Shown here: positions 2,718 to 54,790 of the stretch, in pieces
How the letters are laid out: every line of letters begins with the position of its first letter
Numbering within the stretch: the stretch's first letter is position 1
Origin: Bacteroidota bacterium
GTDB taxonomy: Bacteria; Bacteroidota; Bacteroidia; Bacteroidales; B39-G9
DNA: 64,000 nucleotides
Direction of reading: 5' to 3'
NCBI GenBank assembly: GCA_015222055.1
Contig: JADFUR010000045.1
Location: forward strand, 6,860 to 70,859
Notes under the pieces: model-generated
Told to the model about the DNA's origin: nothing
Database searches by the model: none
Seen by the model: the letters and a program-made list of their open reading frames with translations, nothing else
Position numbers and translations under genes: made by a program

Positions 2718-3872
2718 ATGCAAAAAATAAGCCAATCATTATTTTTTTTATCCCTGTTGCTAATAATATCTTTACATTTTGCATCAGCTCAAAGCTATAA
2801 CTCTATATTTTTATCGGAAACACAAATAAATGCGGCAGATAGCAATAACGTTTTCTTTAATTTTAACAATACAAACTTTATTAAAAACAATGAGTATTTT
2901 AATAAAATTATTGAAGGATATACATATATCGGATTGTTTGCACAACCAAAGCTCACTTATTTCCCAAGTAAAAACATAAAAATTGAAGGAGGTGTTCATC
3001 TGCTAAAATATTCAGGACTTGATAAATTTACTCAAACAAAACCAATATTCACTTTTCAATATCAACATAAAGATTTTAGTTTAATACTTGGAACAATTTA
3101 CGGTACACTAAACCACAATTTACCCGAACCGGTTTTTTCGTTTGAACATTATTATACAAACAATGTCGAAAACGGAATGCAAATTTTATTAAACAAAACT
3201 TATCTTAAATCAGACACTTGGATTAATTGGGAACAATTTATTCTCCCCAACGACACATTGCCCGAGAGATTAACTTTTGGTTCGTCAAACTTATTTTATT
3301 TATCAGACACATCAAACAGCTTAATACTAACAATCCCCTTACAGTTTTTGATTAATCACCGTGGCGGACAATCATCAAACATAAATTCGAATATTCAAAC
3401 TCTTGCAAACACAGATATTGGACTAAATGTTAAATATAAAATTCAGTCGAAAGCAATAAAATCGATTGAATTTAACAATTATTATTTTTCATTTTTCAAC
3501 AATTCTAATATTATTGAAACATATTTTGACAAGGGCTCTGCTACTTATTCTCAATTAATAATTAATGCCAATAAATTTATTTATTCTGTAGGATACTGGA
3601 ACGCACACAATTTTATGTCTGTTTTTGGAGACCCTATGTTTCAATTAGTTTCACAAAAAAACATATTAGACACAAAGCCTGACAAACAACTCTTAACATC
3701 AAATTTATTTTATAGTGCACCATTGTGTAAGGGTGTTAATTTTGGTTTTAGAACAGAATTATATTATGACTTAGCTGCCGAAAAATTCGACTATTCTATG
3801 GGATTGAATATAGTAGTAAATCAAAAATTTTTCTTGAAAAAAATTAAAACTTATCAAGCTGCAAAATATTAA
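2718..3872 (+). CDS. Hypothetical secreted protein, possibly an outer-membrane beta-barrel
   Basis: ORF 2685-3872. The ATG at 2718 gives signal peptide MQKISQSLFFLSLLLIISLHFASAQ. Composition is rich in alternating aromatic/polar residues. No family recognised. Confidence 0.5.
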   Translation: MQKISQSLFFLSLLLIISLHFASAQSYNSIFLSETQINAADSNNVFFNFNNTNFIKNNEYFNKIIEGYTYIGLFAQPKLTYFPSKNIKIEGGVHLLKYSGLDKFTQTKPIFTFQYQHKDFSLILGTIYGTLNHNLPEPVFSFEHYYTNNVENGMQILLNKTYLKSDTWINWEQFILPNDTLPERLTFGSSNLFYLSDTSNSLILTIPLQFLINHRGGQSSNINSNIQTLANTDIGLNVKYKIQSKAIKSIEFNNYYFSFFNNSNIIETYFDKGSATYSQLIINANKFIYSVGYWNAHNFMSVFGDPMFQLVSQKNILDTKPDKQLLTSNLFYSAPLCKGVNFGFRTELYYDLAAEKFDYSMGLNIVVNQKFFLKKIKTYQAAKY

Positions 3873-3896
3873 TCTGCAAAAAGCTTTGTTAAAACA

Positions 3897-3956
3897 TTTT
3901 AAAAAAAAAACCACAATCCCAACTTACACTTTTTTTGTTTTTTTTTGCTAACTTTG
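3897..3956 (+). repeat. Promoter-bearing repeat, copy R1
   Basis: AAAAAACCACAATCCCAACTTACAC-T7-G-T9-GCTAACTTTGG is identical over more than 50 bp to 7127-7179. Related copies lie at 8069-8146, 12428-12531 and 15493-15598. Confidence 0.8.
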
Positions 3957-4019
3957 GGTTTCGCTATTTAGATATAGTGGAAATATAAGGCACTAGTGTG
4001 TTATATTTAATCGTTAGGC
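3946..4019 (+). repeat. Short attC-like or junction element: TGCTAAC..(hairpin)..GTTAGGC
   Basis: TGCTAAC at 3946-3952 and canonical core-site-like GTTAGGC at 4013-4019. Imperfect internal hairpin at 3985-4006. Confidence 0.4.
3949..3956 (+). promoter_or_regulatory. Bacteroidetes-type -7 box TAACTTTG (TAnnTTTG) inside R1, reading into the ABC operon
   Basis: Exact match to the TAnnTTTG -7 consensus. The same box sits at the 3' end of all five R copies, always oriented toward the next plus-strand gene. Confidence 0.55.
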
Positions 4020-4057
4020 AAAATTGCAAAGAAACCTTATGCTATAGAAAAACAAAT

Positions 4058-4807
4058 ATGATTGAGATAATAGATTTAAATAAAATATTTGGGAAAAATA
4101 AAGTTCTTGATAATATCAATCTAAAGATAGAACAAGGAGCCGTATATTCTCTGCTTGGAAAAAATGGTGTTGGTAAAACAACATTGATTAATATTTTGGT
4201 TGATTTGATAAAACCTGATAGCGGTAAAATCCTAATAAATGGAAAAGAGCACAATGCTCTTAGTAAATTGGATAAAATGAATATTGGAGTTGTTGGAGAA
4301 GACCTAGCCTTGATTGAAGAACTTAATGGATATGAGTTTTTAAGTTTTGTTGGAAGAATTTACCAATTGCCAAAAAACACTTTAAATAAAAGGATTGATG
4401 ATCTTTTTAACTATTTTTTTGAAGATGAAAGAGATTTGAAAAAAAATATTTCAAAGTACTCTACAGGTATGAAGAAGAAGATCGCTTTTTGTGCTGCTGT
4501 TCTTCATACTCCCGATATTTTAATACTTGACGAGCCTTTTTCGGGACTTGACCCATTCGTTGCAAATCAAATGATATCATTTTTAAAAGTTTACAAAAAA
4601 AAGGATAGAACTATTTTTATATCCTCGCACGATTTAAGTTATGTTGAAAAAATAGCCTCCCATATCTGTGTTTTAAATGATACCCAAATACAATTTAATT
4701 CAACTCTACAAAATTTCACGAATAATGGGGAGAATTCTCTAGATAAGTCTTTACTAAAGATTTTAAAACCTAACGAATCAGAATTAACTAAAATTGATTG
4801 GGTATGA
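4058..4807 (+). CDS. ABC transporter ATP-binding protein
   Basis: Walker A GKNGVGKTT, signature YSTGMKKK, Walker B ILILDEPFSGLD. Start moved to MIEIIDLNKIFG. Stop overlaps the next gene. Confidence 0.9.
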   Translation: MIEIIDLNKIFGKNKVLDNINLKIEQGAVYSLLGKNGVGKTTLINILVDLIKPDSGKILINGKEHNALSKLDKMNIGVVGEDLALIEELNGYEFLSFVGRIYQLPKNTLNKRIDDLFNYFFEDERDLKKNISKYSTGMKKKIAFCAAVLHTPDILILDEPFSGLDPFVANQMISFLKVYKKKDRTIFISSHDLSYVEKIASHICVLNDTQIQFNSTLQNFTNNGENSLDKSLLKILKPNESELTKIDWV

Positions 4808-6135
4808 TAATATTTCTAATTTTAAATAAATTCAAATCTTATTTGAAAACCCTTAAAAATCCTTGGAAAATAGTTTTAACAATTTTTTTAACCTCGACCG
4901 CCTGGATGTATGGTCGTTTATTCGGTGAATTATCGAATAAATTAGGAAGAGGAGAAATTGACTTTATAACAACAGAGGAATTTACAAGTTTAACCTTAAT
5001 TGCGATTTTGACAATTACTTTTGTTAGAGTGATATTCCCAAATTATAAACCATTAAAAATAATATTCCCTAAGTATTATCCATTATCAAAGATGCAAGTG
5101 TATTTAACATCAATTGTTAATGATCTTATTACACCTTATTTTTTCTATTTATCTATTTTTATTTTCACAGGTGGCTTTTATATATTCGATAAGGGTATCG
5201 CTTTTATCTTTGGTGGTTTCATTGTTTTACTAGGGGGACATCTGCTCAGACGAAGTATTCAATATTTAATAGAGTTTAAATTGAAAGCATTTGCTCAAAT
5301 TAGTTTTATGCTTGTTGCAATCATAGTATCGACAACAGCATTTTATTTCTCAGATTCTTCACCTTTCAATAGATCGTATTTCCTTTTATTTGCGTCATTA
5401 TTATTATTCCTGCTTGGATATATTCAAAATATAGCTGTAATTGAAAGTAGGAATAATGAGATGTCTGGATATTCAAATAAGAGTAGTATAGGTCTAAAGT
5501 TACTTTTAAACAATAAAAAAGTAAGACTACCTTTGATTATTGGATTACTTTTTAAAACATTCATTTTAATAGGAGACTTAATTCTTTTTAATACCAAAGG
5601 AGATCATTTATTTGATGGTCAAATCGTATTTTGGTTATTAGCATCTCCTTTAATAATCTACACATATGTTTTTAATAATATATGGGGCTTCTGGAAAAAT
5701 ATTTGGTTAAACATGGAGCTTCGTGTTGGCGATTATAAACCTATGATTAAACAAGGTTTTCGTTTAATGATTCTGCCGCTAGTTGTAGATGCGGTCATTA
5801 CAATACCAATTTTGATGTTATCATGGAATGCCTTTGAGTTTATTTCATTGTTTTATACTACAACAGCATTTTATTTAATAATGTTATCATTTATTTGGTC
5901 ATTAATTACTCCTAGAAATATTAGTTCCACCTTTCAGATGAAAGGGAGTACTTCACCTATTAGCCTTGTAGTCGCTATGGGTGGTGTATTATTAATGACG
6001 ACAATTAAGTTGAATACTTGGTTTTACATATTAATTCCAGCATATATTGTAATAGGAGGTGTTGCATACTGGCTAAGTATTGAAATTTATAAAGATAAAA
6101 AATATGTAATTTCCAATAAAGTAATGAAGGAATAA
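4798..6135 (+). CDS. Polytopic membrane protein, putative permease partner of the ABC ATPase
   Basis: 445 aa with about 10 or more hydrophobic segments. A 10-nt overlap with the upstream ATPase suggests translational coupling. Confidence 0.7.
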   Translation: MGMIIFLILNKFKSYLKTLKNPWKIVLTIFLTSTAWMYGRLFGELSNKLGRGEIDFITTEEFTSLTLIAILTITFVRVIFPNYKPLKIIFPKYYPLSKMQVYLTSIVNDLITPYFFYLSIFIFTGGFYIFDKGIAFIFGGFIVLLGGHLLRRSIQYLIEFKLKAFAQISFMLVAIIVSTTAFYFSDSSPFNRSYFLLFASLLLFLLGYIQNIAVIESRNNEMSGYSNKSSIGLKLLLNNKKVRLPLIIGLLFKTFILIGDLILFNTKGDHLFDGQIVFWLLASPLIIYTYVFNNIWGFWKNIWLNMELRVGDYKPMIKQGFRLMILPLVVDAVITIPILMLSWNAFEFISLFYTTTAFYLIMLSFIWSLITPRNISSTFQMKGSTSPISLVVAMGGVLLMTTIKLNTWFYILIPAYIVIGGVAYWLSIEIYKDKKYVISNKVMKE

Positions 6136-6141
6136 GCAACA

Positions 6142-6332
6142 TTTGCCTAACAAAAGCTAAATTTCATGCGCGCTGATAAGCAGTTCGAAAGTTTAGTACA
6201 ATTAAGAAACACCAGCAAGCCATATAAACTGGTTTGCTTAGAAATATAAACAAATTTATACGGCTTGCTTCCGTGAGTTTTGAAAGGTTTATTCTTTTAA
6301 ATCGCCCACTCAACTTAGCAAGACCGTTAGCA
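6142..6332 (+). repeat. attC-like imperfect inverted repeat (site B)
   Basis: TTTGCCTAAC(6142-6151)-AAAA-GCTAAATTT(6156-6164) ... AACTTAGC(6312-6319)-AAGACC-GTTAGCA(6326-6332). Inner stem AGCAAGCC(6214-6221)/GGCTTGCT(6262-6269). The left box is the exact reverse complement of 4013-4022. Confidence 0.6.
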
Positions 6333-6369
6333 ACAAGCAAAAAAGCACACACACACATTTGAGAAATAT

Positions 6370-6912
6370 ATGAAAAAAAATATCAAAGCTTTTATTAAAG
6401 AGATCGTTCCTATAATAGTTGGAATTTTAATTGCCATGTACATCACCAATTGGAATGAGAATAGAAAAGAAAAAAAGTACATTAATCAAATGTATTTATC
6501 AATTAATAAGGAACTAATCGAAACCAATGAAGATATCATTGACAAAATATCTATACAACAATCATTTATTGATACTCTTGATTTTTATTTAGAGGACAAT
6601 AAAATATCGTTACTTGATATAACAATTAAAGCTAACGGAATTTATATGCCTACAATAAAAATAAATTCTTGGAAAGCTATTTCAAATTCAAGAATTGAAT
6701 TAGTGGAATACGACAAAGTATCTGCTTTTGCAAATATTGAAGAGCAAAAAGAGATTTTGAAAATGAAAATTGAGAAATTGGGTAATTTCTTTTACTCAAA
6801 TACTAAAGAAACAGGAAAAGAAAAAAAAGAATTTATGAAGATAATTATGTTAGATATTATTGGGACAGAAATACCCTTACAAAAAGGGATTGAGAGAATT
6901 ATAAATGATTAA
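6370..6912 (+). CDS. Single-pass membrane protein of a multi-copy Bacteroidetes family (N-terminal ..GILIA..NWNE.RK anchor; possibly DUF6090-like)
   Basis: 180 aa with N-terminal TM IVPIIVGILIAMYITNWNENRKEKKYI. The family assignment is from memory of the motif only. Confidence 0.6.
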   Translation: MKKNIKAFIKEIVPIIVGILIAMYITNWNENRKEKKYINQMYLSINKELIETNEDIIDKISIQQSFIDTLDFYLEDNKISLLDITIKANGIYMPTIKINSWKAISNSRIELVEYDKVSAFANIEEQKEILKMKIEKLGNFFYSNTKETGKEKKEFMKIIMLDIIGTEIPLQKGIERIIND

Positions 6913-6916
6913 TGCC

Positions 6917-7050
6917 TGTTGCTAACACACGCTAAATTTAATTGCCGTTTTTTGTTCTGAATACAAACTGTTTAGCCTGCAACAACGGCGGTGTGGTTCG
7001 ACAGGAAATCAACCCGAAATCGGCAACAAAACTTAGCACAGTCGTTGAGC
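6917..7050 (+). repeat. attC-like imperfect inverted repeat (site C)
   Basis: TGTTGCTAAC(6917-6926)-ACAC-GCTAAATTTAATTGCCG(6931-6947) ... CGGCAACAAAACTTAGC(7021-7037)-ACAGTC-GTTGAGC(7044-7050). The left box is the exact reverse complement of 6326-6335. Confidence 0.6.
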
Positions 7051-7100
7051 AAAACCAAAGGTAGCGGTTTGTTTTTTATAATGCATTTGGACTAAACTCA

Positions 7101-7178
7101 ATTTTTCAATCTTAAACCCGACTTTTAAAAAACCACAATCCCAACTTACACTTTTTTTGTTTTTTTTTGCTAACTTTG
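7101..7178 (+). repeat. Promoter-bearing repeat, copy R2 (-7 box TAACTTTG at 7171-7178)
   Basis: More than 50 bp identical to R1. The upstream part ATTTTTCAATCTTAAACC is shared with R3. Confidence 0.8.
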
Positions 7179-7232
7179 GATTTATCAATTAAATCTCAAC
7201 AATAAATAAAAATTGAACTAAAATTAAAACTA

Positions 7233-7988
7233 ATGAATATAAATTTAGCAGTACTAATTGATGGCGATAATATACCATCCGCTTTTGTGAAAGAAATGAT
7301 GGAAGAAATAGCTAAATATGGAAATCCAACTATAAAAAGAATTTATGGAGATTGGACAAAACCCAATTTATCTAAATGGAAAAATGTACTTTTAGAAAAT
7401 GCCATTACTCCAATTCAACAATATGGATATACAACAGGCAAGAACGCTACAGATTCTGCAATGATAATTGATGCTATGGATATTTTATATTCAGAAAAAG
7501 TGAATGGGTTTTGCATAGTATCAAGTGACAGTGATTTTACCCGGTTAGCAACTCGCTTAAGAGAGGCTGGCATGCAGGTGATTGGGATTGGAGAAAAAAA
7601 GACACCAAATCCATTTATTGTGGCGTGTGACAAATTCATCTACATTGAAATTCTGAAAAATAAAACAAAAGAAAAAGCTTCTGAGGATGAGAAGGAATTG
7701 GAAAAAGAAACATTTGATAAAATTAGTTCGAAAGATATTAAATTAATTGCAACTACAATTACAGATTTATCTGATGATGAAGGATGGGCTTTTTTAGGAG
7801 ATGTTGGAAGCTTGTTGCAAAAAAAACGACCTAATTTTGATCCTCGAAACTATGGTTTCCAAAAGTTGACTCCTTTGATTAAGTCAATAGAAAAATTTGA
7901 AATTGAGCAAAGAGAAAGCCAAAAAGGCAGGTATAAGTTGATTTATGTTAAAAATAAAGAAAAGCACACAACACGCTCTCATAAATAA
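7233..7988 (+). CDS. NYN-domain (LabA-like) protein with C-terminal OST-HTH/LOTUS domain
   Basis: N-terminus LAVLIDGDN..YGDW..GKNATDSAMIIDAMD..FCIVSSDSDFTRLATRLREAG matches the NYN fold pattern. C-terminus GWAFLGDVGSLLQKKRPNFDPRNYGFQKLTPLI is LOTUS-like. Confidence 0.8.
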   Translation: MNINLAVLIDGDNIPSAFVKEMMEEIAKYGNPTIKRIYGDWTKPNLSKWKNVLLENAITPIQQYGYTTGKNATDSAMIIDAMDILYSEKVNGFCIVSSDSDFTRLATRLREAGMQVIGIGEKKTPNPFIVACDKFIYIEILKNKTKEKASEDEKELEKETFDKISSKDIKLIATTITDLSDDEGWAFLGDVGSLLQKKRPNFDPRNYGFQKLTPLIKSIEKFEIEQRESQKGRYKLIYVKNKEKHTTRSHK

Positions 7989-8068
7989 TTAAGATAAATG
8001 CAATGAAATTAAATATTGCAGACCGCAATAGACAAATATTCGTAAAGTAGTATATTGAGAGAATCTTA

Positions 8069-8146
8069 ATTTTTCAATCTTAAACCAACTTTTTAAAAAA
8101 ATCATAATCCCAATTTATCCCTTTTTGTATTTTTTTGTTAACTTTG
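8069..8146 (+). repeat. Promoter-bearing repeat, copy R3 (-7 box TAACTTTG at 8139-8146)
   Basis: ATTTTTCAATCTTAAACCAACTTTTTAAAAAAATCATAATCCCAATTTATCC..TTGTTAACTTTG aligns with R2 and R5. Confidence 0.75.
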
Positions 8147-8241
8147 ATTCTCGACTATAAAAGACATAGAAGATATAAAACTCATTGGAAGTGATTATTA
8201 AATTGTTACCAACAAATTTAATAAATAAATACTCCACAACT

Positions 8242-9369
8242 ATGAAAAAATATTTATTGGTAATATTGCTAATTCTTGGCTTCGAATCTTTTGGTTCCAC
8301 TTTAAATGTTGAGACAAAAACATTTAAAAATGGAAGAACAATAAGAGTTTGCCTACCGGAAAAATATACAAAATTTACTCTTAAACTACCTGTTATTTAT
8401 GTTTTTGATGGTCAGATATTATTTAATTATATAATTGGGTTATACGAATACAATTTTGATAAATACCCTCCTGCTATTATTGTAGGAATTGAACAATTAG
8501 ACAGAGGAAACGAATTTATAAAACAAAAAGAAGATTCTGCAAAAAAAACATTTTACAAATTTGAAGACTTTATAACAAAAGAATTAATTCAGTATATTGA
8601 TTCTAATTATAGAACTAATTCAATTAAAATTGGTATTGGGCATTCCCATGGAGGAACTTTTTTACTCAATAATTTATTATTACATAAAACTTTTACAGTT
8701 GGAATTTGCGTTAGTCCTACCTTATGGACAAATAAGTATGCAATTTTTCAAAACTATCAAGCTATTAAAAACAAATCAGATTTATCATTTCAACTTTATT
8801 TAGCTTATGGCGAAAATGACTTTAGTGCAATTAAAAAGGGCGTTTGTGATTTTAATCAAATGTTATTGTCTGATTCAACATCAAAAATAATTTCACATGT
8901 TGATGAATACAAAGGAGAAGACCACAACTCTGCAATTCTTGTAGGAAGTAGAAAAGGTTTAAATTACATATTTAAAGACTATGTCTTTCCGGAAAATAAA
9001 TGGGACTTGATGGAAGAATCTGCTAATGATTCAATGTTTTATACACATTATAAAAAACTTTCAAAAAAACTTAATTGTCAAATTATCCCATTAGAAGATG
9101 ATTATAATAGCTTGGGTTATTTCTATTTAGAGCTAAATAAGATTGATAAGGCTATGGAAATATTTAAAAAAAGCATGATTTATTATCCATATTCATCAAA
9201 TGTATATGATAGCTACGCTGACGCACTTGAAAAAAAAGGAGAACTTAAAAAGGCATACAAATTTTGTCAAAAAGCTTTAAAATTAGAACTTAAGACGGAT
9301 AATAACAGTTTTCAGATAGAACAATATAAGGGGCATTTAACAAAATTAGAAAAAGCTCTGGGAAAATGA
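8242..9369 (+). CDS. Secreted alpha/beta-hydrolase (esterase-family) protein with C-terminal TPR repeats
   Basis: Signal peptide MKKYLLVILLILGFESFG. GHSHGG nucleophile elbow (GxSxG). The C-terminal YDSYADALEKKGELKKAYKFCQKAL segment is TPR-like. Confidence 0.75.
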   Translation: MKKYLLVILLILGFESFGSTLNVETKTFKNGRTIRVCLPEKYTKFTLKLPVIYVFDGQILFNYIIGLYEYNFDKYPPAIIVGIEQLDRGNEFIKQKEDSAKKTFYKFEDFITKELIQYIDSNYRTNSIKIGIGHSHGGTFLLNNLLLHKTFTVGICVSPTLWTNKYAIFQNYQAIKNKSDLSFQLYLAYGENDFSAIKKGVCDFNQMLLSDSTSKIISHVDEYKGEDHNSAILVGSRKGLNYIFKDYVFPENKWDLMEESANDSMFYTHYKKLSKKLNCQIIPLEDDYNSLGYFYLELNKIDKAMEIFKKSMIYYPYSSNVYDSYADALEKKGELKKAYKFCQKALKLELKTDNNSFQIEQYKGHLTKLEKALGK

Positions 9370-9757
9370 AATACCAATTTATAATCAAGCAGATTGTCGT
9401 TTAACAAACTTTTGACAGAACACCTCTCTGCTTGTCGTTACCTCATGCTAATTCTTTTATTCCACAAAAATCTTCTTTTTATTAACTTTTTGATTTAACA
9501 ATAAAATATATCATATAAATAAAACAGCTTGGTGGGGCTTGTTGAAGTGTTATCCCTTATAGTATCTCTATAAAACAAAAATAAACAATCACTAGGATCT
9601 CTTGTATTTTCTTAAACAAAATCACAAAAAAATACATTTGTCTGAACTAAACACAAATATTTCACTTGTTTTTTTTAATTTCTAAGTGGTTGATTTTGTG
9701 TCCACTAAGCATTTAAAACTTAATCGTAAGTTAATTAACTAATCTTTTAGTTGCATA

Positions 9758-9781
9758 ACTTAAAATTAAGTTGTATGTTTG
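9758..9781 (+). promoter_or_regulatory. Palindrome ACTTAAAATTAAGT abutting a TATGTTTG -7 box upstream of blaI; candidate BlaI operator and promoter
   Basis: 14-bp perfect palindrome at 9758-9771. TAnnTTTG match at 9774-9781, 30 nt before the ATG at 9811. Confidence 0.45.
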
Positions 9782-9810
9782 TAAAGCCAATTAATTAAAT
9801 CTTAACAGTA

Positions 9811-10191
9811 ATGATTACTCTAACAAAAGCAGAAGAAAAAATAATGCAAATATTATGGGGAATAGAAAAGGGATTTATAAAAGACATTCAGAAAAAATTC
9901 CCTGATCCAAAACCTCCGTATAATTCTGTTTCTACTATTGTTAGAATTTTAGTAAAAAAGGAGATTGTTTCATTCAATAAGTTTGGGAATACTTATCAAT
10001 ACTATCCTATTATATCAAAAGAAGAGTATAGTAAATCTCAAATGAAAAATCTTGTAAGTAAATACTTTAATAATTCGTTTAAAAAAGTTGTTAATTTTTT
10101 ATCAGAAAACAAGGAGATTGATATTAAGGAAGTGAATGAGGTAATGGAAATGCTTGAGGAAATCAAAGAACAAAAAAAGAACTCAAAATAA
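9811..10191 (+). CDS. blaI: BlaI/MecI/CopY-family winged-helix transcriptional repressor
   Basis: 126 aa, LTKAEEKIMQILW..YNSVSTIVRILVKKEIVS. Sits immediately upstream of an M56 BlaR1-type gene. Confidence 0.85.
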   Translation: MITLTKAEEKIMQILWGIEKGFIKDIQKKFPDPKPPYNSVSTIVRILVKKEIVSFNKFGNTYQYYPIISKEEYSKSQMKNLVSKYFNNSFKKVVNFLSENKEIDIKEVNEVMEMLEEIKEQKKNSK

Positions 10192-10214
10192 TTTGAATCT
10201 AATTCAAAAAAGCT

Positions 10215-12263
10215 ATGGGAGCATTTATTTTATATTTGTTTGAGACATGTTTATGCTTGTCAATACTTTTTCTAGTGTATCTTATATCTTTTAGGAAAGA
10301 AACCTACTTTAACTTAAACAGGTTTTATCTTTTAGGAATAATGTTTATTTCTCTTGTTTTACCTATTGTTCATTTATCCTTTTCAATATCCTCTAATCCT
10401 TCTATTCACGAATCTGTTAGTGAAATTGGCAAAATCAGAAGTTACTACGCTGATATTATATCAATGACTGAGCAAGAATTTTCATATTTACCTTATGTTA
10501 ATTACGAATCAGCCATATTCGAAGATAATGAAAGTGTAGATTCCGGACTTAATAACACAAATCTGGCATATACTAAAAACGATAATAATATAACAAACAA
10601 TTCTTTTTTAAAAGGAATGCACCTTTCTCTGGCAAAAATTATTTTATTAATATATCTGCTTGGAGTTATATTTTTCTTATTCCGATTGTTATTTTTAACA
10701 AGATGGTTATTTCTTACAATTAGAAGCAATACTCATAAAAAATTTAAAGGTTACGAAATCATATTGCTCAATAAAGAAATTCCGCCTTTCTCGTTTTTAA
10801 AATACATTTTCATAAATAAGGAAACAGCTAATTTTCATGAATACGAACAGATTATAGCTCATGAGCTTGTTCATGTAAATCAGAGACATTCCTTTGATCT
10901 TTTAGTTGCAAATGGTTTAACTGTTTTTATGTGGTTTAACCCCTTGGCATGGCAATTACAAAAAGCAATAAAAACAACACATGAATATATTGCTGATAGC
11001 AAAGTTGTAAGCCAGGGTTATGAATTATTTGATTATCAATCATTACTGTTAAGACAATTGGTTGGCATACCATCAATAGGATTGGTTAATAATTTAAATT
11101 TATTATTCATTAAAAAAAGAATTATCATGATGACAAAAAAGAAATCTGGTTTTGCCTCAAAGATGAAGGCACTACTAATAATACCAGCAGCCTTAGTTGC
11201 ATTCATTTTGTTTGCAAACCTAACGCTTAAGAGTCCCGCTTTGAACTTTACAAATTACAATACAACAAAAAGTTCAAACCTTGAAGGAATATGGAAAAAC
11301 AACAGCAAAACAACTTATGGAAAATTATTGCTTTTTAAAGGCTCCAATCTATCCATTTTAGAACACGAAAAAAGTGTAAATGTTGTTGATCTAAGTATCC
11401 TCGTAAATGAAAAAGAATTTGTTATTCTCAATGGAAAACAAAAGCAAGGAGTTTTGAAATATGAAATTGAAAATAACAAGTTAAAAATATGGTGGAATGA
11501 GAATGAATTTTCAGTTTATTCGAAAACGAAATATTCAAATTCTGCTGAAGCTCTAATACCTAAAAAATTTAAGGACATTTCTCTTCCTTTAATGCAAGAA
11601 TCAAAAATTCTTGACAAAACTCAACTAATCTACAATATCTATGTTTACCCTGACAAATATTATGTAGAAGATGAAGAGTGTAACCTTGCTAAACTTAAGG
11701 AGTGTATTCAAAAAAGAGTGTCAAAATTCAATGTGTTAGACAAAATGTTTGCTACATCCAGATTATATATTGACAAATCGACAAACATGGAATCTGTTTA
11801 TAATCTGCTTCAGATTTTAAGAAAATTACAACTATATAAAATAGGTTTTGCAACAATTCCTAAGGGCGATATATCAAAATTACAATACCATTATTCTGCA
11901 TTACCACAAAAACTACCACCATTGGAAAAGGATGGTGCAAAATTGATGGAAATTGAAAAAATAAAAGACAGGTTAATAATACTTAAGCCAAGTAGTGATA
12001 TTAAAAAAACAGGTTCGGAATTTGAGAGTTTCATTGTAAAACATCCTGATTATATTGCAAGTTTACAATATAATAACACAACAAAGTATGGAGAATATTT
12101 GGCAATTATTGATATGACATTTAATGTTCTGTACAAATTAAGAGACCAATATTCCTTCGAAAAACATGGCATGAAATACTTGGACTTGCCAAAAAATTTA
12201 CAGAAAAAAATACGCAAGAAGTATCCAATGCGTGTTTCTCAGACAAATCTTGACGACGAATAA
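10215..12263 (+). CDS. M56-family (BlaR1-like) membrane metalloprotease/signal transducer with a long uncharacterised C-terminal region
   Basis: Multiple N-terminal TM segments. HEXXH motif in IIAHELVHVNQRHSFD. No penicillin-binding (SxxK) sensor domain is evident in the C-terminal ~370 aa. Confidence 0.8.
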   Translation: MGAFILYLFETCLCLSILFLVYLISFRKETYFNLNRFYLLGIMFISLVLPIVHLSFSISSNPSIHESVSEIGKIRSYYADIISMTEQEFSYLPYVNYESAIFEDNESVDSGLNNTNLAYTKNDNNITNNSFLKGMHLSLAKIILLIYLLGVIFFLFRLLFLTRWLFLTIRSNTHKKFKGYEIILLNKEIPPFSFLKYIFINKETANFHEYEQIIAHELVHVNQRHSFDLLVANGLTVFMWFNPLAWQLQKAIKTTHEYIADSKVVSQGYELFDYQSLLLRQLVGIPSIGLVNNLNLLFIKKRIIMMTKKKSGFASKMKALLIIPAALVAFILFANLTLKSPALNFTNYNTTKSSNLEGIWKNNSKTTYGKLLLFKGSNLSILEHEKSVNVVDLSILVNEKEFVILNGKQKQGVLKYEIENNKLKIWWNENEFSVYSKTKYSNSAEALIPKKFKDISLPLMQESKILDKTQLIYNIYVYPDKYYVEDEECNLAKLKECIQKRVSKFNVLDKMFATSRLYIDKSTNMESVYNLLQILRKLQLYKIGFATIPKGDISKLQYHYSALPQKLPPLEKDGAKLMEIEKIKDRLIILKPSSDIKKTGSEFESFIVKHPDYIASLQYNNTTKYGEYLAIIDMTFNVLYKLRDQYSFEKHGMKYLDLPKNLQKKIRKKYPMRVSQTNLDDE

Positions 12264-12427
12264 TGTTGATAGAATAAGCAAATTGAAATAAAGCATTGTG
12301 CGAGAAACTGGTAAATTTAATTTGCGATATTGAAAAAAATGGCTCATGAGATTAATTTCTTTTGGGCCATTTTTAATAATAATTGTTAATGCGTTTTTGT
12401 TTTTACTTCCTCAGTTTATCGTAGTCT

Positions 12428-12531
12428 CTGATTACAACATCAACTTGCACAAACGTATTGTATACTTTTTTAATGTTTTAAAAAAAAACACTCCCAAATT
12501 TATTTCTTTAATTCTTTTTCTGCTAACTTTG
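12428..12531 (+). repeat. Promoter-bearing repeat, copy R4 (-7 box TAACTTTG at 12524-12531)
   Basis: CTGATTACAACATCAACTTGCACAAACG..CTGCTAACTTTG aligns over about 170 bp (including the leader) with 15493-15652. Confidence 0.75.
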
Positions 12532-12558
12532 GTATTGATTATTAAATATATAAAGGAT

Positions 12559-12580
12559 ATAAGACACAAGTGTGTCTTAT
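12559..12580 (+). promoter_or_regulatory. Leader hairpin ATAAGACAC-AAGT-GTGTCTTAT downstream of the R4 promoter
   Basis: Perfect 9-bp stem. Homologous but weaker hairpins lie at 3985-4006 (R1) and 15624-15634 (R5). Confidence 0.45.
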
Positions 12581-12658
12581 TTGGTTGTTTAGCGGTAAGC
12601 TTTAAAAAGACGCAACCTTTACAACAATAAATGCATCTAAAAGAGAAAAAGACTAATC

Positions 12659-13120
12659 ATGAAAAATTTACTCCACCTTCCAAAAATAATTTTAATAGCA
12701 ATTATTTCATTTTGCATTTGTGCTTGTGACAAAGACGAGATTGACGTAGAATATGATATTGCAGGTGACTGGAAAGTTGTATCATACAAAACATCATCGG
12801 TAATTACCAAGACTGAAGAAAATACCTGGAATCAATTTAATAATGGTGATGTTACAGTTAGTTTCACTGAGCCTGAATTAACAAATGGAGAAATTACTGG
12901 AATAAAAGTCACCAACAGTTTTTCTGGCGAATACACAATTGACAACAAAGGTAATATTTCGATAAGTAATCTTTCTCAAACCTTAATTAATGAGCCTGAA
13001 TGGGGAAGATTGTTTGATACAATTCGAGAGGCGGAATCTTACGAGGTACGAGATAATCTCCTTATCATTTATTACAACAAGAGAAAAAATAACATTACTC
13101 TTGAGAAACTTAGTAACTAA
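12659..13120 (+). CDS. META-domain (HslJ-like) lipoprotein
   Basis: Lipobox ..FCICAC|D. DWKVVSY..VTVSF..GEITGIKVTNSFSGEYTIDNKGNISISNLSQT..LIIYY resembles the META domain. Confidence 0.65.
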   Translation: MKNLLHLPKIILIAIISFCICACDKDEIDVEYDIAGDWKVVSYKTSSVITKTEENTWNQFNNGDVTVSFTEPELTNGEITGIKVTNSFSGEYTIDNKGNISISNLSQTLINEPEWGRLFDTIREAESYEVRDNLLIIYYNKRKNNITLEKLSN

Positions 13121-13137
13121 AATTTATAAAAGCCAAT

Positions 13138-13325
13138 CGCTAAAAGCTATATATAATACGGGGTACAGCGGGTAATTCAACTGTAGTTCTCCATAACAAC
13201 ACCGACAATTCGTCTTTGACGATTTGGCTATAAAAACTAAAATATAAATAAACGAATTGGTTCAGTGGTAGCCCGATAGTGAAGCATTTCAAAATCCCGC
13301 ACTCCACATAGCCAAATCGTTAAAA
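13138..13325 (+). repeat. attC-like imperfect inverted repeat (site F)
   Basis: CGCTAAA(13138-13144)-A-GCTATAT ... ACATAGC-CAAATC-GTTAAAA(13319-13325). Inner stem GCGGG/CCCGC. CGCTAAA is the reverse complement of TTTAGCG at 12588-12594. About the same length as site B. Confidence 0.45.
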
Positions 13326-13400
13326 ACAATACAAAACAAAAGTCCACCTATATTGGAATATAAAATAGAAACAAAAATTTCACAGTAAAACAAAAAAATT

Positions 13401-13676
13401 ATGAAATACATAAAATTAATGAGTTACTTGTTTCTATTAGTCATGCTTTTAACAGGTTGTATTGAAGAGAAGTCTGTTACAATTTGTGACATAGACAATC
13501 CGCAGGAAAATTTAGAAAGGCTCAACCATTTGTTACAAAAAAGTTTTTGCACCGATGTGTATAAAATTGAGTACAACGGGCACAAATATATAGGCGTTTA
13601 CGATTGTCCGGTCGGTGCAGACTATGGTTGGATAATTTATAACTGTGACGGTACAATATTCTGCAAACTAATTTGA
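13401..13676 (+). CDS. Small Cys-rich lipoprotein, hypothetical; reading frame continues for 30 plausible codons past the TGA
   Basis: Lipobox LLTGC|I. After TGA 13674-13676 the same frame reads FTGQCDCPNDFIGNAKKTLIYHQDEPINH up to TAA at 13767-13769. Confidence 0.5.
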   Translation: MKYIKLMSYLFLLVMLLTGCIEEKSVTICDIDNPQENLERLNHLLQKSFCTDVYKIEYNGHKYIGVYDCPVGADYGWIIYNCDGTIFCKLI

Positions 13677-13817
13677 TTTACAGGGCAGTGCGATTGCCCC
13701 AATGATTTTATTGGTAATGCAAAAAAAACATTAATTTATCATCAAGATGAACCTATAAACCATTAAAAAATTAAAGTTATATCATAACAACATCCCTTGA
13801 ATGTCTTTAATTTTAAT

Positions 13818-13850
13818 ATATCAACATATTAGCAATTAATATGTTGATAT
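13818..13850. terminator. 12-bp-stem hairpin between convergent genes
   Basis: ATATCAACATAT(13818-13829)/ATATGTTGATAT(13839-13850). No clear T-run follows. Confidence 0.35.
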
Positions 13851-13873
13851 GTTTATTAGTTTATAATTCTTGA

Positions 13874-15301
13874 TTAAGCCCCGTGAAACTCATATACGGC
13901 TTGAATATCTACAGTTATACGAGTAAATAAATCTTCAATTAGCTTATCCGTAACATCAAGTGCAGACTGCATTACGTGATCAGAAAATTCTTGAATTAAT
14001 TCCTTAGCTCTAATCGGTTGATTTTTATAAATACGAAGATATTCTATCTCCATTTCTTTCATACGTTGATCATTCTCTGCTTCAAATTCAGCATATACCT
14101 TTTGAATAAGTGGTGCATATTTGTTATAATTAGTCATACCTAAGGCCTGTACCTTACGAAATTTCCAATAAGCCGAATCGTCAGAAGAAACATCTGTTCC
14201 TTTAGTATAAGGTTCAAGATAGCTACTAATTCCTTGATAATAAGGAACAAATACACCAAGAGCAGCCATACCCATAGCCATATAATCAACTTCTCCTATA
14301 GCTTGAGGCATATCAGAACGCACTTGAAGTATGTGAGTTTGAGTAGCCCTCATAATAGAAATTGGGCGATAAGCTTCCTTCGGATTATTATTTAAATAAG
14401 GATCGTGCTCAGTACCATTATAGTGGAAACGGAACGCAGTTCTTAAATCAGTAATACTAATAGGATTTTCAGGAAAAGCAAACACTGGAAAAGTATTTTT
14501 TGTTACATCATTTTTAATCTTAGGACTAAGCATTTTCTGAATTCCCCAAACACGTGGATAATTGTATGTGGTGTCTAATTTCACATCACGACTATAAGCT
14601 GTATGAAAATCGAATTCCCCTTTTGAAGGATCGTAAAATTTATGTTCTTTAGCGAAATCTATTAAATCTTTAGTTGCTAAAAAATTAGTTTTATCTTTTG
14701 GATTATATTCGCGAAAGCGACTCTGATTACCACTACAAAAATACTGATCATCTTTCATATTACAGGCTAACCAACGATGTCCGCAAGCTGTTTCAAGATA
14801 CCAAATTTCATTTTTATCAATAAAGCCGATTCCAAATCCTTCGGCAACCCCATATTTTTCTATTAAACTTCCTAACCTAAGTGCACCCTCACGAGCAGTC
14901 TTTATATAAGGTAATACTATATTAAATGCACTGTTTTCAGCAACGCCACTTTCTACAAGAGGGTCAAATTCTAGAACGGCATCACTACTAAAAATACTTT
15001 CTGTAGCACTCATTCCTACACCTTGAGAATTAAAGCCAGCACTACCCCAATGACCCGGAAGACAATATGGAGCTAATGCAGTATAACCAAATCTTTTTTC
15101 AGGTAAAGGGCAGCGAAATGGGCTGTCTTTTGCTACAAATTCTTTAGGACCATTATCTGTGTCCTCATACATTTCAAGATTTTTAGCTTCTGTAGCATCC
15201 CAATCTTCAGATCTAGCTACTATCCTTGATCCATCAGCAGTAGCCTTATTTCCAACTATTATAGTCGTACACTCTGAAGGATATTTACTTTTATTTTTCA
15301 T
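13874..15301 (-). CDS. C69-family dipeptidase
   Basis: 475 aa. N-terminal ..SECTTIIVGNKATADGSRIVARSEDW has the nucleophile Cys typical of peptidase C69 (PepD-like). Confidence 0.85.
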   Translation of the reverse strand: MKNKSKYPSECTTIIVGNKATADGSRIVARSEDWDATEAKNLEMYEDTDNGPKEFVAKDSPFRCPLPEKRFGYTALAPYCLPGHWGSAGFNSQGVGMSATESIFSSDAVLEFDPLVESGVAENSAFNIVLPYIKTAREGALRLGSLIEKYGVAEGFGIGFIDKNEIWYLETACGHRWLACNMKDDQYFCSGNQSRFREYNPKDKTNFLATKDLIDFAKEHKFYDPSKGEFDFHTAYSRDVKLDTTYNYPRVWGIQKMLSPKIKNDVTKNTFPVFAFPENPISITDLRTAFRFHYNGTEHDPYLNNNPKEAYRPISIMRATQTHILQVRSDMPQAIGEVDYMAMGMAALGVFVPYYQGISSYLEPYTKGTDVSSDDSAYWKFRKVQALGMTNYNKYAPLIQKVYAEFEAENDQRMKEMEIEYLRIYKNQPIRAKELIQEFSDHVMQSALDVTDKLIEDLFTRITVDIQAVYEFHGA

Positions 15302-15492
15302 ATAAAATGATTTTAGAGTATATTTTTTTAAATATTATTTTAGCAAGTTACTAAAAAGGCAAAGAAAAGGTAAATATCAATGTGGTTTTTTTCTGTAAAT
15401 TCAGAGATGGCACAAGCGGAACGCTTGCACCAAAAAAAAGATTGACTTGATGAAATGGACAAAAAACAAAAGGCTCCCACTTGTCAGAGTAT

Positions 15493-15598
15493 CTGACTAC
15501 AACCTCATCTTGCACAAACACATTGTCTGTTTTTTTAATATTTAAACCAACTTTAAAAAAAATCACAATCCCAATTTATACTTTTTTTGCTAACTTTG
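15493..15598 (+). repeat. Promoter-bearing repeat, copy R5 (-7 box TAACTTTG at 15591-15598)
   Basis: CTGACTACAACCTCATCTTGCACAAACAC..TTTAAACCAACTTTAAAAAAAATCACAATCCCAATTTATAC..TGCTAACTTTG aligns with R3 and R4. Confidence 0.75.
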
Positions 15599-15672
15599 AT
15601 TTTGACTATTAAACACATAAAATACACAGTGTGTCTTATGTAGGTATTGGTAACCAAATAAAAAAAAAGATT

Positions 15673-16476
15673 ATGAATCCTAAAACATTAATAAAAACTA
15701 GCAATACAATCGGAATAATCTCAATAATCCTTTTGATTTATTGAATATTCGTTTTTATGACCGTTGAAGTCTTTGGACTTAAAGTATTTCGAGAGAATAT
15801 TACCGAGACTTTTTACTTGAGTATATTAGGAATATTAGCATTAATGTTTGGAGCATTAATTATTAATATTATGTTCAATTTGACAAGAATTGCACAAAAA
15901 CATAATAATGACAATGAGTTGTTAAAAAATAAAAAATCAAAAGTTGTAATTATAATTATTATCGTAAGTTTTCCCTTTATACTTGGACTTTTATTTGGCG
16001 GTGACTATTTGACCTCTTAAAAGAAAGAAAAACTATTAATACTATCAGCAGAATCAATAATAACAGACTATTCAATAAAAGCAGATAAACTTGTGAACTA
16101 TTCATTTACTGAAAATTGGATAAATGAAACAGATGAAATTTTGAACATTTTATCTAAAACAAACAAGCATTTCCCTCATATTTCTGTAATAGTGAAAGAT
16201 TCAATTGACGATTCTAAACTGTTCCTTGGATTTAGGAGTTATTATGGATATCTAAGCGTGAACGACACAATTAAACCACATAAAAAGAAATATATTCTTA
16301 AAACAACTAAACCTGAAAGGGACTATTTAAATAAAATCTTTGAATCAAAATTTGACGAAATAAGATTTAGTGCTCACGATGGAAATTACGAATTTTACTA
16401 TCCATACATTAAAGGAGGCAAAATAATAGTTTTATATTTTTCAGACCATAAGAGATATGGAAAGATAGGAAGTTAA
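15673..16476 (+). pseudogene. Membrane protein gene interrupted by two in-frame stops (TGA 15742-15744, TAA 16018-16020)
   Basis: Three consecutive segments share one frame: 15673-15741 (MNPKTLIKTSNTIGIISIILLIY), 15745-16017 and 16021-16476. The track ORFs 15757-16020 and 16093-16476 are the last two pieces. Confidence 0.55.
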
Positions 16477-45000: not shown

Positions 45001-45125
45001 TAATTCCACAGGGAGAAAATTTCTTTGCTATAATTAAAAAATCACTCCCGGCGGGTTTCTCGTTTATTATCAACACCAACGATTAAAATCGGGGGCTATT
45101 CATATTTTTTCCTTTCAGGAAAATT
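45001..45125. repeat. About 125-bp multi-hairpin intergenic repeat, copy E2
   Basis: Aligns with 2396-2520 and shares the 3' block GGGCTATTCATATTTTTTCCTTTCAGGAA. Confidence 0.7.
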
Positions 45126-54660: not shown

Positions 54661-54699
54661 AAAATGGAGTTTGTGTAATTTTAATGTGGGTGAAGTAAC

Positions 54700-54790
54700 G
54701 GGGAAAGGCTAAAGGGGAAAGGCTAAAGGCTAAAGGCTAAAGGGGAAAGGGGAAAGGCTAAGGTTAAAAGGGGAAAGAGGAAAGTTAAAA
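54700..54790 (+). repeat. Tandem array of 13 heptamers (GGGGAAA / GGCTAAA and variants)
   Basis: Reads GGGGAAA GGCTAAA GGGGAAA GGCTAAA GGCTAAA GGCTAAA GGGGAAA GGGGAAA GGCTAAG GTTAAAA GGGGAAA GAGGAAA GTTAAAA. Ends 10 nt before the ATG at 54801. Confidence 0.9.

Follow-up and report, generated by a model that had tools for sequence, protein, structure and literature searches.

A repeated promoter-like module at integron-type cassette junctions in a chromosomal locus of an uncultivated Bacteroidota bacterium

Introduction

Integrons are best understood in Proteobacteria, where one integrase, one attI site and one cassette promoter (Pc) serve arrays whose distal cassettes are mostly silent. Recombination takes place at G↓TT (the arrow marks the crossover), so that a cassette, once integrated, has the TTRRRY of its own attC site as its first bases; toxin-antitoxin pairs are a typical content of the cassettes of chromosomal integrons. 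Integron integrases also insert cassettes at genomic GWT sites, with expression near a resident promoter, and small clusters of attC sites lacking an integrase (CALINs) as well as single attC sites lacking an integrase (SALINs) have been proposed to arise through such insertions (bioRxiv 10.1101/2022.09.11.507474). Integron elements are reported to be very rare in complete Bacteroidota genomes. Here, a repeat family designated R is described from a 64,000-nt stretch of the genome of an uncultivated Bacteroidales bacterium (assembly GCA_015222055.1, contig JADFUR010000045.1, positions 6,860 to 70,859 of the forward strand; hereafter, the window). It consists of five promoter-plus-leader copies of 150-180 bp (R1-R5) and a decayed one, all located within 12 kb on the plus strand. 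The copies are homologous, their orientation and position fit promoters, R1 is followed by two canonical integron-type cassettes, a different cassette occupies the orthologous nucleotide in a related genome, and the copies have been homogenised within the genome. On balance, R appears to represent paralogous sigma-A promoter/leader modules acting as Pc-like and possibly attI-like cassette platforms.

The closest described system is the integron platform composed of Pc and attI. As in such a platform, a resident promoter at this locus would point into promoterless cassettes joined at G↓TT, the R'' box of the attC of each cassette pairs with the first bases of that cassette, and the site holds different cassettes in relatives. 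Unlike it, R has no intI gene among the open reading frames (ORFs) scanned against Pfam (roughly 30, including every gene-called ORF of at least 60 aa between 1 and 22 kb), is present as five or six paralogous modules instead of one, lies downstream of a housekeeping gene, and carries no recognised L/R boxes or direct repeats of the attI type. This upstream gene, hereafter the anchor gene, is lipid-A-deacylase-like, has the same orientation as R1 and is syntenic in five genomes.

Results and discussion

Cassettes following R1

Two units, cassettes A and B, are located immediately behind R1, and each ends in an attC-like site, (a) and (b), respectively (Table 1). Both sites have the R''(RYYYAAC)-L''...L'-R'(GTTRRRY) architecture, although R' of site (a) departs from RRRY at two positions. 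The box R''(a) (GCCTAAC, 6145) is the exact reverse complement of G plus the TTAGGC with which cassette A starts, and R''(b) (TGCTAAC, 6920) is that of G plus the TTAGCA of cassette B. The complementarity between R'' and the start is 7/7 in both cases, as against 3-5/7 in the wrong pairings, and the chance of obtaining both matches is between about 1/256 and 1.5e-5 with four variable positions counted per site. This circular-permutation signature identifies position 4013 as a genuine integron-type cassette junction, which is what an earlier interpretation of this DNA from its letters alone (the sequence-only reading) had taken GTTAGGC to be; the Pc/attI-like role it proposed for R1 on that ground is the part of its interpretation that the sequence best supports.

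The arrangement R''-4 nt-L''...L'-6 nt-GTT was found at only two places in the 64 kb, 590 nt apart and both just after ORFs of the variable segment. The same motif pair recurs in unrelated contigs (L012 and L014 in the numbering of compared loci used here), and site (a) belongs to one sequence family with L012 10363-10441 and L014 4889-4967. When folded as bottom-strand single-stranded DNA, the sites have their R and L boxes paired around an unpaired spacer. The 7/7 rule also holds for three cassettes of L014, encoding a PMT_2 protein, a GAF-kinase and a ParE toxin-antitoxin system. A metagenome-assembled genome (MAG) of Salinivirgaceae (L024) has the left boundary of cassette B, G↓TT(T)AGCAACAAGC, in another sequence context, and TGCTAAC follows the stop codon of the DUF6090 gene in L024 and L025, even in a genome of Salinimicrobium (Flavobacteriaceae). 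Homologues of this DUF6090-like protein from different orders share 65-92% identity, in keeping with a cassette that travels. Base composition does not separate the cassettes from their surroundings. Reading of the sequence revealed no TAnnTTTG box upstream of the ORFs of cassettes A and B, and R1 would be the only evident promoter for both.

A different cassette at the orthologous site

The same site could be compared with that of L001, a Bacteroidales MAG which gave the single true match in a scan of one genome per species with the repeat core. L001 is syntenic with the window and has two R copies, one after the anchor gene (L1a) and one before the NYN-LOTUS gene (L1b). Homology between the two genomes stops at 4009 (L001 2601) and resumes in both exactly at GTTGAGCAAAACCAWAGGTAGCGG (GTTGAGC), the DNA upstream of this right-hand junction being different. 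The variable segment between the R copies measures about 3.0 kb in the window and 0.74 kb in L001, from which the cassette A segment is absent and where a MazE/MazF-like pair occupies the site. The MazEF cassette starts at A2605↓TTACCA, corresponding to G4013↓TT of the window, and its R'' box, GGGTAAC, matches this start at 6/7 positions. R1 lies entirely in the conserved flank and ends at G4013. With MazEF in one genome and A/B in the other at an orthologous nucleotide, one site holds different cassettes in two genomes. Since R1 ends exactly at the insertion point of two cassettes, it is probably an expression platform for captured genes.

The pair itself (L001 2694-3262) comprises an AbrB/SpoVT-like MazE and a MazF/PemK-like toxin and carries a TAACTTTG box of its own, 25 nt ahead of the ATG.

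The R family

Direct reading and alignment placed five copies on the plus strand where the sequence-only reading had seen them, and the similarities it had listed were borne out. R1 and R2 are identical over 53 of 53 bp (AAAAAACCACAATCCCAACTTACAC-T7-G-T9-GCTAACTTTGG; more than 50 bp had been claimed), R2, R3 and R5 have TTTTTCAATCTTAAACCAACTTTT-A-run-YCAYAATCCCAA in common (the TTTTTCAATCTTAAACCAAC block), and R4 and R5 share about 175 bp (previously about 170 bp), including an additional upstream block of some 66 nt with 79% identity. The overall identity of R4 and R5 is 79-83%, and that of R3 and L1b is 83% over a 62-nt core. Within 64 kb, the exact core AATCCCAAnTTA is restricted to R1, R2, R3 and R5, and TAACTTTG occurs in none of the other TAnnTTTG sites located up to 250 nt upstream of 51 scanned ORFs. 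The two copies of L001, an independent related genome, match all five window copies with BLAST E-values of 5e-13 to 4e-20, which excludes chance similarity among the R copies. In an nhmmer search with a hidden Markov model built from seven R copies, the window copies, being themselves among the sequences used in building the model, scored E 1e-26 to 1e-31, and the decayed sixth copy (9474-9555) scored E 1.4e-5.

Some copies have suffered losses: the leader hairpins of R2 are removed by a 68-nt deletion seen in alignment with its orthologue L1b, and R5 is without one 10-nt T-run unit. Orthologous pairs (R1 and L1a or the L019 copy, R2 and L1b) are only 71-81% alike, and the complete identity of the R1 and R2 cores, set against this value, indicates that the copies are homogenised by recombination within the genome. 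Neither terminal inverted repeats nor target duplications nor flanking inverted repeats were found at R, and all copies have one orientation. Duplication and recombination, and not transposition, may account for the local spread of the family.

Outside the window, scans of metagenome and viral sequences with the R core gave no true matches, only chance ones in coding DNA; nine loci considered as R carriers (L002-L009 and L021) were likewise rejected as chance matches inside coding sequence. In L019, whose anchor gene is 78% identical, R lies right after the anchor gene (2264-2375) and the contig ends inside it; the contig of L020 ends at the start of R. L017, with an anchor gene of 70% identity, has no R, and R was found in none of nine other NYN-LOTUS loci searched. 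R is thus carried by the window MAG and two or three relatives at orthologous positions, and is therefore a small, local, lineage-restricted family and not a dispersed mobile element. The idea of a mobile module put forward in the sequence-only reading is not supported: the copies of the relatives lie at the same positions, with no dispersal.

Promoter and leader

Every R copy points at the next plus-strand ORF. The distance from the end of the TAACTTTG box to the ATG is 101, 54, 95, 127 and 75 nt for R1 to R5, in agreement with the 55-128 nt given earlier. The box is present in all five window copies as well as in L1a and L1b, and has the form TAACTTTA in L019. TAnnTTTG is the sigma-A consensus in Bacteroides (PMC7366714) and spans positions -12 to -5 relative to mapped starts in a flavobacterium (PMC9723704), on the basis of which starts can be predicted at 3961, 7183, 8151, 12536 and 15603, about 5 nt past the box, with leaders of 50-123 nt. 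R5 is located between divergent genes and so is not merely the tail of the gene upstream. At the level of sequence, the layout of a Bacteroidota sigma-A promoter is supported for R. A sigma-70 promoter scan of the window was uninformative (75 matches, 75.8 expected).

In the multiple alignment, the similarity extends about 55 nt past TAACTTTG, over GACTAYTAAATATATAGTRG (hairpin H1) and ATATAAGACACA..TGTGTCTTAT (hairpin H2). Both hairpins are present in R1, R4 and R5 and weakly in R3. Folding is somewhat better than in shuffled sequences for the leaders of R1, R4 and L1a (z -1.7 to -2.6), and not significant against shuffles for those of R3 and R5. Covariation in H2 amounts to one compensatory pair among nine, too weak for an RNA-motif call, and a covariance search of the leader against Rfam 15 returned nothing at the gathering score and no credible match at E <= 5. 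An RNA function of the leader is possible.

In all six full copies (R1, R3, R4, R5, L1a and L1b), 6 nt separate the 3' arm of H2 from a (G/A)TT, the point at which the copies cease to be similar (Table 1). This geometry of a hairpin, 6 nt and (G/A)TT is that of L'-6 nt-R' in the attC-like sites (a) and (b). Together with the reuse of one site in two genomes, it suggests that the 3' end of R might act as a preferred target. R1 also contains three direct YYAAYTT boxes and ends with GTTAGGC, and has no recognisable L box, although no Bacteroidota attI model exists for comparison.

Taken together, R might work as follows. The module would comprise an A-run, the CACAATCCCAA box, T-runs and the -7 box TAACTTTG, with transcription starting about 5 nt after the box and proceeding through a leader, about 50 nt long and containing two AT-rich hairpins, to its end at the (G/A)TT 6 nt past H2. 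R1 would supply transcription to captured promoterless cassettes, as Pc does. Its 3' end would probably be favoured for insertion, as an attI-like site or a hot attG, and an integron integrase encoded elsewhere might act on it in trans, and R3-R5 may serve as platforms in the same manner.

Units behind the other R copies and analogous repeats

The META lipoprotein unit following R4 (Table 1) has the 3' end ACATAGC-CAAATC-G↓TTAAAA and a long stem at 13212-13327. Judged from its sequence, it is probably a decayed cassette, representing a weaker case than cassettes A and B. A hairpin located after the esterase gene (9378-9452) was considered as an attC site and rejected, as its spacer is 2 nt long and it has no AAC box.

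L014 has a lineage-specific repeat, about 160-230 nt long and containing a TATCTTTA box, which is unrelated in sequence to R and located directly 5' of the G↓TT of two cassettes (PMT_2 and ParE toxin-antitoxin). It occupies positions 33-149 and 7146-7301, and also 8161-8218, wrapping to position 1; the overlap of contig start and end is probably an assembly cycle caused by the repeat. By analogy, this hints that a promoter-like module ahead of a cassette junction is not unique to R. Further intergenic repeats of L013 (4623-4684 and 6673-6734) read AACAT..GTTGARAG..TTTGTG..CACAAAACCAT..AACGT, and the motif GGGTTGTAGCCCG is found downstream of the NYN gene in L013 and L014. Both kinds of repeat flank cassettes in these arrays, and a degenerate form of GGGTTGTAGCCCG, ATTGCAGACCGCAAT, follows NYN in the window at about 8018-8035.

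The NYN-LOTUS gene itself (7233-7988) encodes a LabA-like protein with over 90% identity among numerous Bacteroidales and Marinilabiliales (loci L010-L016, L022 and L023), and has different neighbours in almost every contig, among them a type I restriction-modification system, a DUF87 ATPase and a GAF kinase. In L011, L013 and L014, variable DNA joins NYN at G↓TTATGC(G/A)CAATTC, which is homologous to G↓TTGTGCGCAATTC of L001, and the DNA ahead of NYN-LOTUS gives the impression of having received cassettes repeatedly. The 94% identity of the NYN gene against 76% in the flanks had suggested a recent cassette transfer, which was rejected, since conservation of the protein exceeds 90% in many Bacteroidales.

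Points against a platform role

Several observations weigh against R as a cassette platform. No integron integrase or tyrosine recombinase was detected among the roughly 30 window ORFs scanned, and the number of genomes with R (three or four) gives low comparative power. The sequence-only reading had described the downstream genes as promoterless and cassette-like. A cassette nature is clear only for the units after R1 and probable for the META unit; the esterase unit (R3) and the NYN unit (R2/L1b) have no attC with an R'' box matching their start; the R5 unit has only a 6/7 R''-like box, with no convincing L' or R'. Sites (a) and (b) were called manually, no site in the region was returned by a strict canonical attC scan, and a relaxed structural scan is non-discriminating in DNA of 30% GC (114 matches, 91 +/- 11 in shuffles). 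With generic scans being uninformative, the calls rest on the family motif and on the rule that R'' matches the cassette start. The constant 6-nt spacing at the 3' end of R counts once, not six times, because the copies are homologous, and two of the six junctions are ATT instead of GTT. As to transcription, the activity of the -7 boxes is predicted from their sequence, and none of the five copies has the canonical -33 TTTG at the expected spacing of 19-21 nt, an absence already remarked upon in the sequence-only reading; the only TTTG near the boxes precedes the -7 box by 11 nt or 1 nt. The missing element does not disqualify R, since the -33 motif was likewise not recovered genome-wide in F. 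johnsoniae (PMC7366714).

Comparison with other described systems

With at least two manually called attC sites and no intI among the ORFs scanned, the A/B segment is a CALIN by definition, and it resembles the CALINs and SALINs of IntegronFinder 2.0 (PMC9024848) in being a two-cassette attC cluster without an integrase; the adjacent intI of a complete integron was not found among these ORFs. Insertions into attG sites (Loot et al., 10.1101/2022.09.11.507474) are similar in taking place at G(T/A)T by a resident promoter that could express the cassettes. R differs from them as a repeated structured target (hairpin-6 nt-GTT), used again in a second genome at the orthologous nucleotide, and is more site-specific.

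Like the Vibrio cholerae repeats of sedentary chromosomal integrons, R is a lineage-specific repeat of more than 100 bp that lies between genes of the same orientation and ends in GTT, and assemblies break at it. Unlike them, it forms no imperfect palindrome and has no R'' box at the canonical distance from L'', and the attC sites (a) and (b) are sequences separate from it. R does not qualify as an attC site: it has only the half formed by the L-box-like H2 and the 6 nt-GTT, and H1 intervenes between H2 and the nearest AAC-ending box (TGCTAAC), some 28 nt upstream.

Putative mobile promoters (Matus-Garcia, Nijveen and van Passel 2012, PMC3488235) are defined by at least 50 nt of at least 80% identity between non-homologous upstream and downstream coding sequences, and R shows all these features. 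It is unlike them in being clustered in 12 kb, in orthologous positions, with no sign of transposition, and tied to cassette junctions. The terminal inverted repeats, target-site duplications and dispersed copies of promoters borne on miniature inverted-repeat transposable elements (MITEs) or insertion sequences are lacking, as are the flanking inverted repeats and, among the ORFs scanned, the recombinase of Bacteroides-type invertible promoters.

Alternative explanations

The strongest alternative, although rather doubtful, is that R is simply a locally duplicated promoter kept alike by gene conversion, next to which cassettes landed by chance at ordinary GTT sequences. The resemblance to putative mobile promoters (PMC3488235) agrees with this, attG insertion requires only GWT, R2 and R3 head genes that are not cassettes, and the scanned ORFs nearby include no integrase. 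Chance landing accounts poorly for the orthologous nucleotide of R1 and L1a holding different cassettes in two genomes, for the cassette-like nature of the META unit after R4 as well, and for the unrelated lineage of L014, where another promoter-like module has the same position before the G↓TT of two cassettes. It is improbable that R would be the attC-type repeat of the array itself, belonging to the upstream unit as a Vibrio cholerae repeat does, with an incidental or secondary resemblance to a promoter. The TG(C/T)TAAC overlapping the '-7 box' would then be R'', H2 the L box and (G/A)TT the R' box. The TGCTAAC of R is indeed identical to R''(b), H2-6 nt-GTT has the geometry of attC, a TTAGCA complementing the TGCTAAC of R1 is found at 2430, upstream of the anchor gene, and TGTTAAC of R3 matches GTTACCA at 6/7. 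Yet TTAGCA is expected in a 530-nt spacer about 13% of the time, the gap between R'' and L'' is about 28 nt with H1 within it instead of 4-5 nt, R as a whole forms no imperfect palindrome, and R'' mismatches the start of the preceding unit for R3, L1b and R4. Moreover, R5 follows a minus-strand gene, and R1 follows a chromosomal gene that is syntenic in five genomes.

Quite improbable, too, is a regulon in which R is the marker and the CACAATCCCAA box or the H2 palindrome is an operator (for instance of BlaI, 9811-10191) or a site for an alternative sigma factor. The box is nearly invariant in seven of eight copies, a BlaI/BlaR1 pair lies inside the cluster, and the H2 core ACAnnTGT resembles the BlaI/CopY box, TACAnnTGTA. 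H2 was nevertheless rejected as a BlaI-type operator, since the spacing of its half-sites varies from 0 to at least 4 nt, which fits a hairpin and not a dimer operator. The similarity covers 150-180 bp including low-complexity runs, which argues for common descent rather than convergence on one site; R2 lacks H2, and the -7 box is that of canonical sigma-A. Of the interpretation given in the sequence-only reading, the promoter layout and the unrelated downstream genes are supported, and the mobile nature and the regulon or alternative-sigma site are not: the CACAATCCCAA box is not singled out in a module conserved at about 80% throughout, and the downstream genes have no common function. A leader whose RNA is the essential part, with H2 and the U-rich tract forming an attenuator, a terminator or the end of a small RNA of about 55 nt, is very unlikely. 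H2 of R4 was picked up as terminator-like, three leaders fold better than shuffles, and the leaders are long when compared with a median of about 24-32 nt (PMC9723704); against this stand the single compensatory pair, the non-significant folds of R3 and R5, an H1 register that differs between copies, the lack of any Rfam match even at E <= 5, and R2, from which the leader hairpins are deleted. Barely credible is a non-autonomous, MITE-like element with an outward promoter. Several copies do precede unrelated genes, and the contigs of L019 and L020 end within R or at its start, but the terminal repeats and target duplications of such an element are missing, there are no further copies in the 64 kb, and only orthologous copies occur in one related genome of the collection, with no true matches in metagenomes or viruses. 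The platform role of R, supported by the junction at 4013 and by the reuse of this nucleotide in L001, remains the preferred explanation.

Context of the locus

The window is an ordinary chromosomal stretch with a GC content of 29.6%. Starting with the riboflavin synthase gene (minus strand), the gene order is: anchor gene (2718-3872), R1, ABC ATPase, 445-aa ORF, DUF6090-like 180-aa ORF, R2, NYN-LOTUS, R3, esterase-TPR, decayed copy, BlaI, BlaR1-like gene, R4, META lipoprotein, 91-aa ORF, peptidase C69 (minus strand), R5 and an interrupted membrane gene. The products encoded downstream of the R copies are all non-homologous (Pfam ABC_tran, NYN+OST-HTH, Esterase+TPR, META and a membrane fragment), and those upstream are assigned to Lipid_A_deac, DUF6090-like, NYN, Peptidase_M56 and Peptidase_C69. 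R5 lies in a divergent intergenic region.

Table 1. Features of the R locus. Positions refer to the window unless L001 is named; the arrow marks the crossover or junction.
Feature	Position	Strand	Description
R1 module	3872-4013	+	A-run, CCACAATCCCAA box, T-runs, -7 box TAACTTTG at 3949-3956; orthologues L001 2468-2605 and L019 2264-2375
R1 3' part		+	H1 ~3960-3981; H2 3982-4007; 6-nt spacer TTAATC; then G4013; 3' end GTTATAT-TTAATC-G↓TTAGGC
R1/cassette A junction	4013-4019	+	GTTAGGC; crossover G4013↓T4014
Cassette A	4014-6326	+	ABC ATPase (4058-4807; Pfam), 445-aa ORF (4798-6135), attC-like site
attC-like site (a)	6145-6332	+	GCCTAAC-AAAA-GCTAAAT ... ACTTAGC-AAGACC-GTTAGCA
Cassette B	6327-7044	+	DUF6090-like 180-aa ORF (6370-6912), attC-like site
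attC-like site (b)	6920-7050	+	TGCTAAC-ACAC-GCTAAAT ... ACTTAGC-ACAGTC-GTTGAGC
Right-hand junction	7044-7067	+	GTTGAGCAAAACCAAAGGTAGCGG; unique in window; equals L001 3344-3367
R2 module	7084-7209	+	-7 box 7171-7178; upstream of NYN-LOTUS (7233-7988); core as in R1
R3 module	8055-8205	+	-7 box 8139-8146; 3' end GATTAT-TAAATT-G8205↓TTACCAAC (G↓TTACCA); upstream of esterase-TPR (8242-9369)
Decayed partial R copy	9474-9555	+	TTAACTTTTTG and leader-like sequence; ~260 nt upstream of BlaI (9811-10191)
R4 module	12416-12587	+	-7 box 12524-12531; H2 12559-12580; 3' end GTCTTAT-TTGGTT-G12587↓TTTAGCGG (G↓TTTAGC)
META unit	12588-13326	+	start TTTAGCGG matches CGCTAAAA just past META stop, 6/7
R5 module	15481-15646	+	-7 box 15591-15598; H2 ~15615-15641; 3' end GTCTTAT-GTAGGT-A15646↓TTGGTAACC (A↓TTGGTA); ahead of interrupted membrane gene
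L1a 3' end (L001)			TTTTAT-TTAGGT-A↓TTACCA
L1b 3' end (L001)			TTTTAT-TGAAAA-G↓TTGTGC

A BlaI-family repressor and, behind it, a protein of 682 aa are encoded at 9811-12263, inside the R cluster. The repressor gene carries a TATGTTTG box of its own, 29 nt ahead of the ATG, and the second protein combines a BlaR1 peptidase M56 domain with an ExbD/TolR-like region. The gene behind R5 (15674-16476) is broken into a 22-codon ORF (15674-15741) and two membrane fragments (15757-16020 and 16093-16476), and is likely a pseudogene. Terminator-like hairpins follow BlaR1 (AAAAAAATGGC..GGGCCATTTTT, 12328-12381) and, between convergent genes, the 91-aa ORF (GGGCAGTGCGATTGCCC, 13683-13699); by their sequence, they would show where transcription units end, just upstream of R4 and ahead of the minus-strand peptidase gene, respectively.

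A second intergenic repeat, unrelated to R, of about 91 nt and 78% identity is located at 2428-2518 and 45032-45122, and also in L001 (976-1131). It consists of a conserved hairpin, CCCACGCTTGAAATCGTGGG, followed by CTATTCATATTTTTTCCTTTCA, and has no Rfam match; the copy immediately preceding the anchor gene is conserved in L001. The repeat could be a small RNA or a terminator-like element. A tandem array with a 7/14-nt period (GGGGAAA / GGCTAAA; about 12 copies with 75-88% matches) fills positions 54696-54790 in the gap between ORFs 53443-54660 and 54801-55658.

Conclusions

The locus presents integron-type cassettes in the chromosome of an uncultivated Bacteroidota bacterium, behind a repeated promoter module whose 3' end mimics half an attC site. 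A repeated promoter is ordinary as a concept; what is unusual is its coupling to cassette junctions at a Bacteroidota locus without an integrase among the ORFs scanned. Even on the more modest reading, R illustrates clearly how a promoter is reused in nature and kept uniform through recombination. If R is a preferred landing site, this would explain how captured genes are expressed immediately, how small integrase-less clusters originate, and why the surroundings of NYN-LOTUS differ in every genome. A bolder and only tentative proposal, for which the chances seem rather low, is that R and the analogous repeat of L014 represent a new integron insertion platform in Bacteroidota, namely a multi-copy, integrase-distal 'promoter plus half-attC' module combining a sigma-A promoter, an L-box-like hairpin, a 6-nt spacer and GTT. 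Such a platform would both attract and express cassettes, and this stretch of the chromosome would then be organised as independently transcribed mini-arrays of one or two cassettes, and not as one long array driven by Pc.

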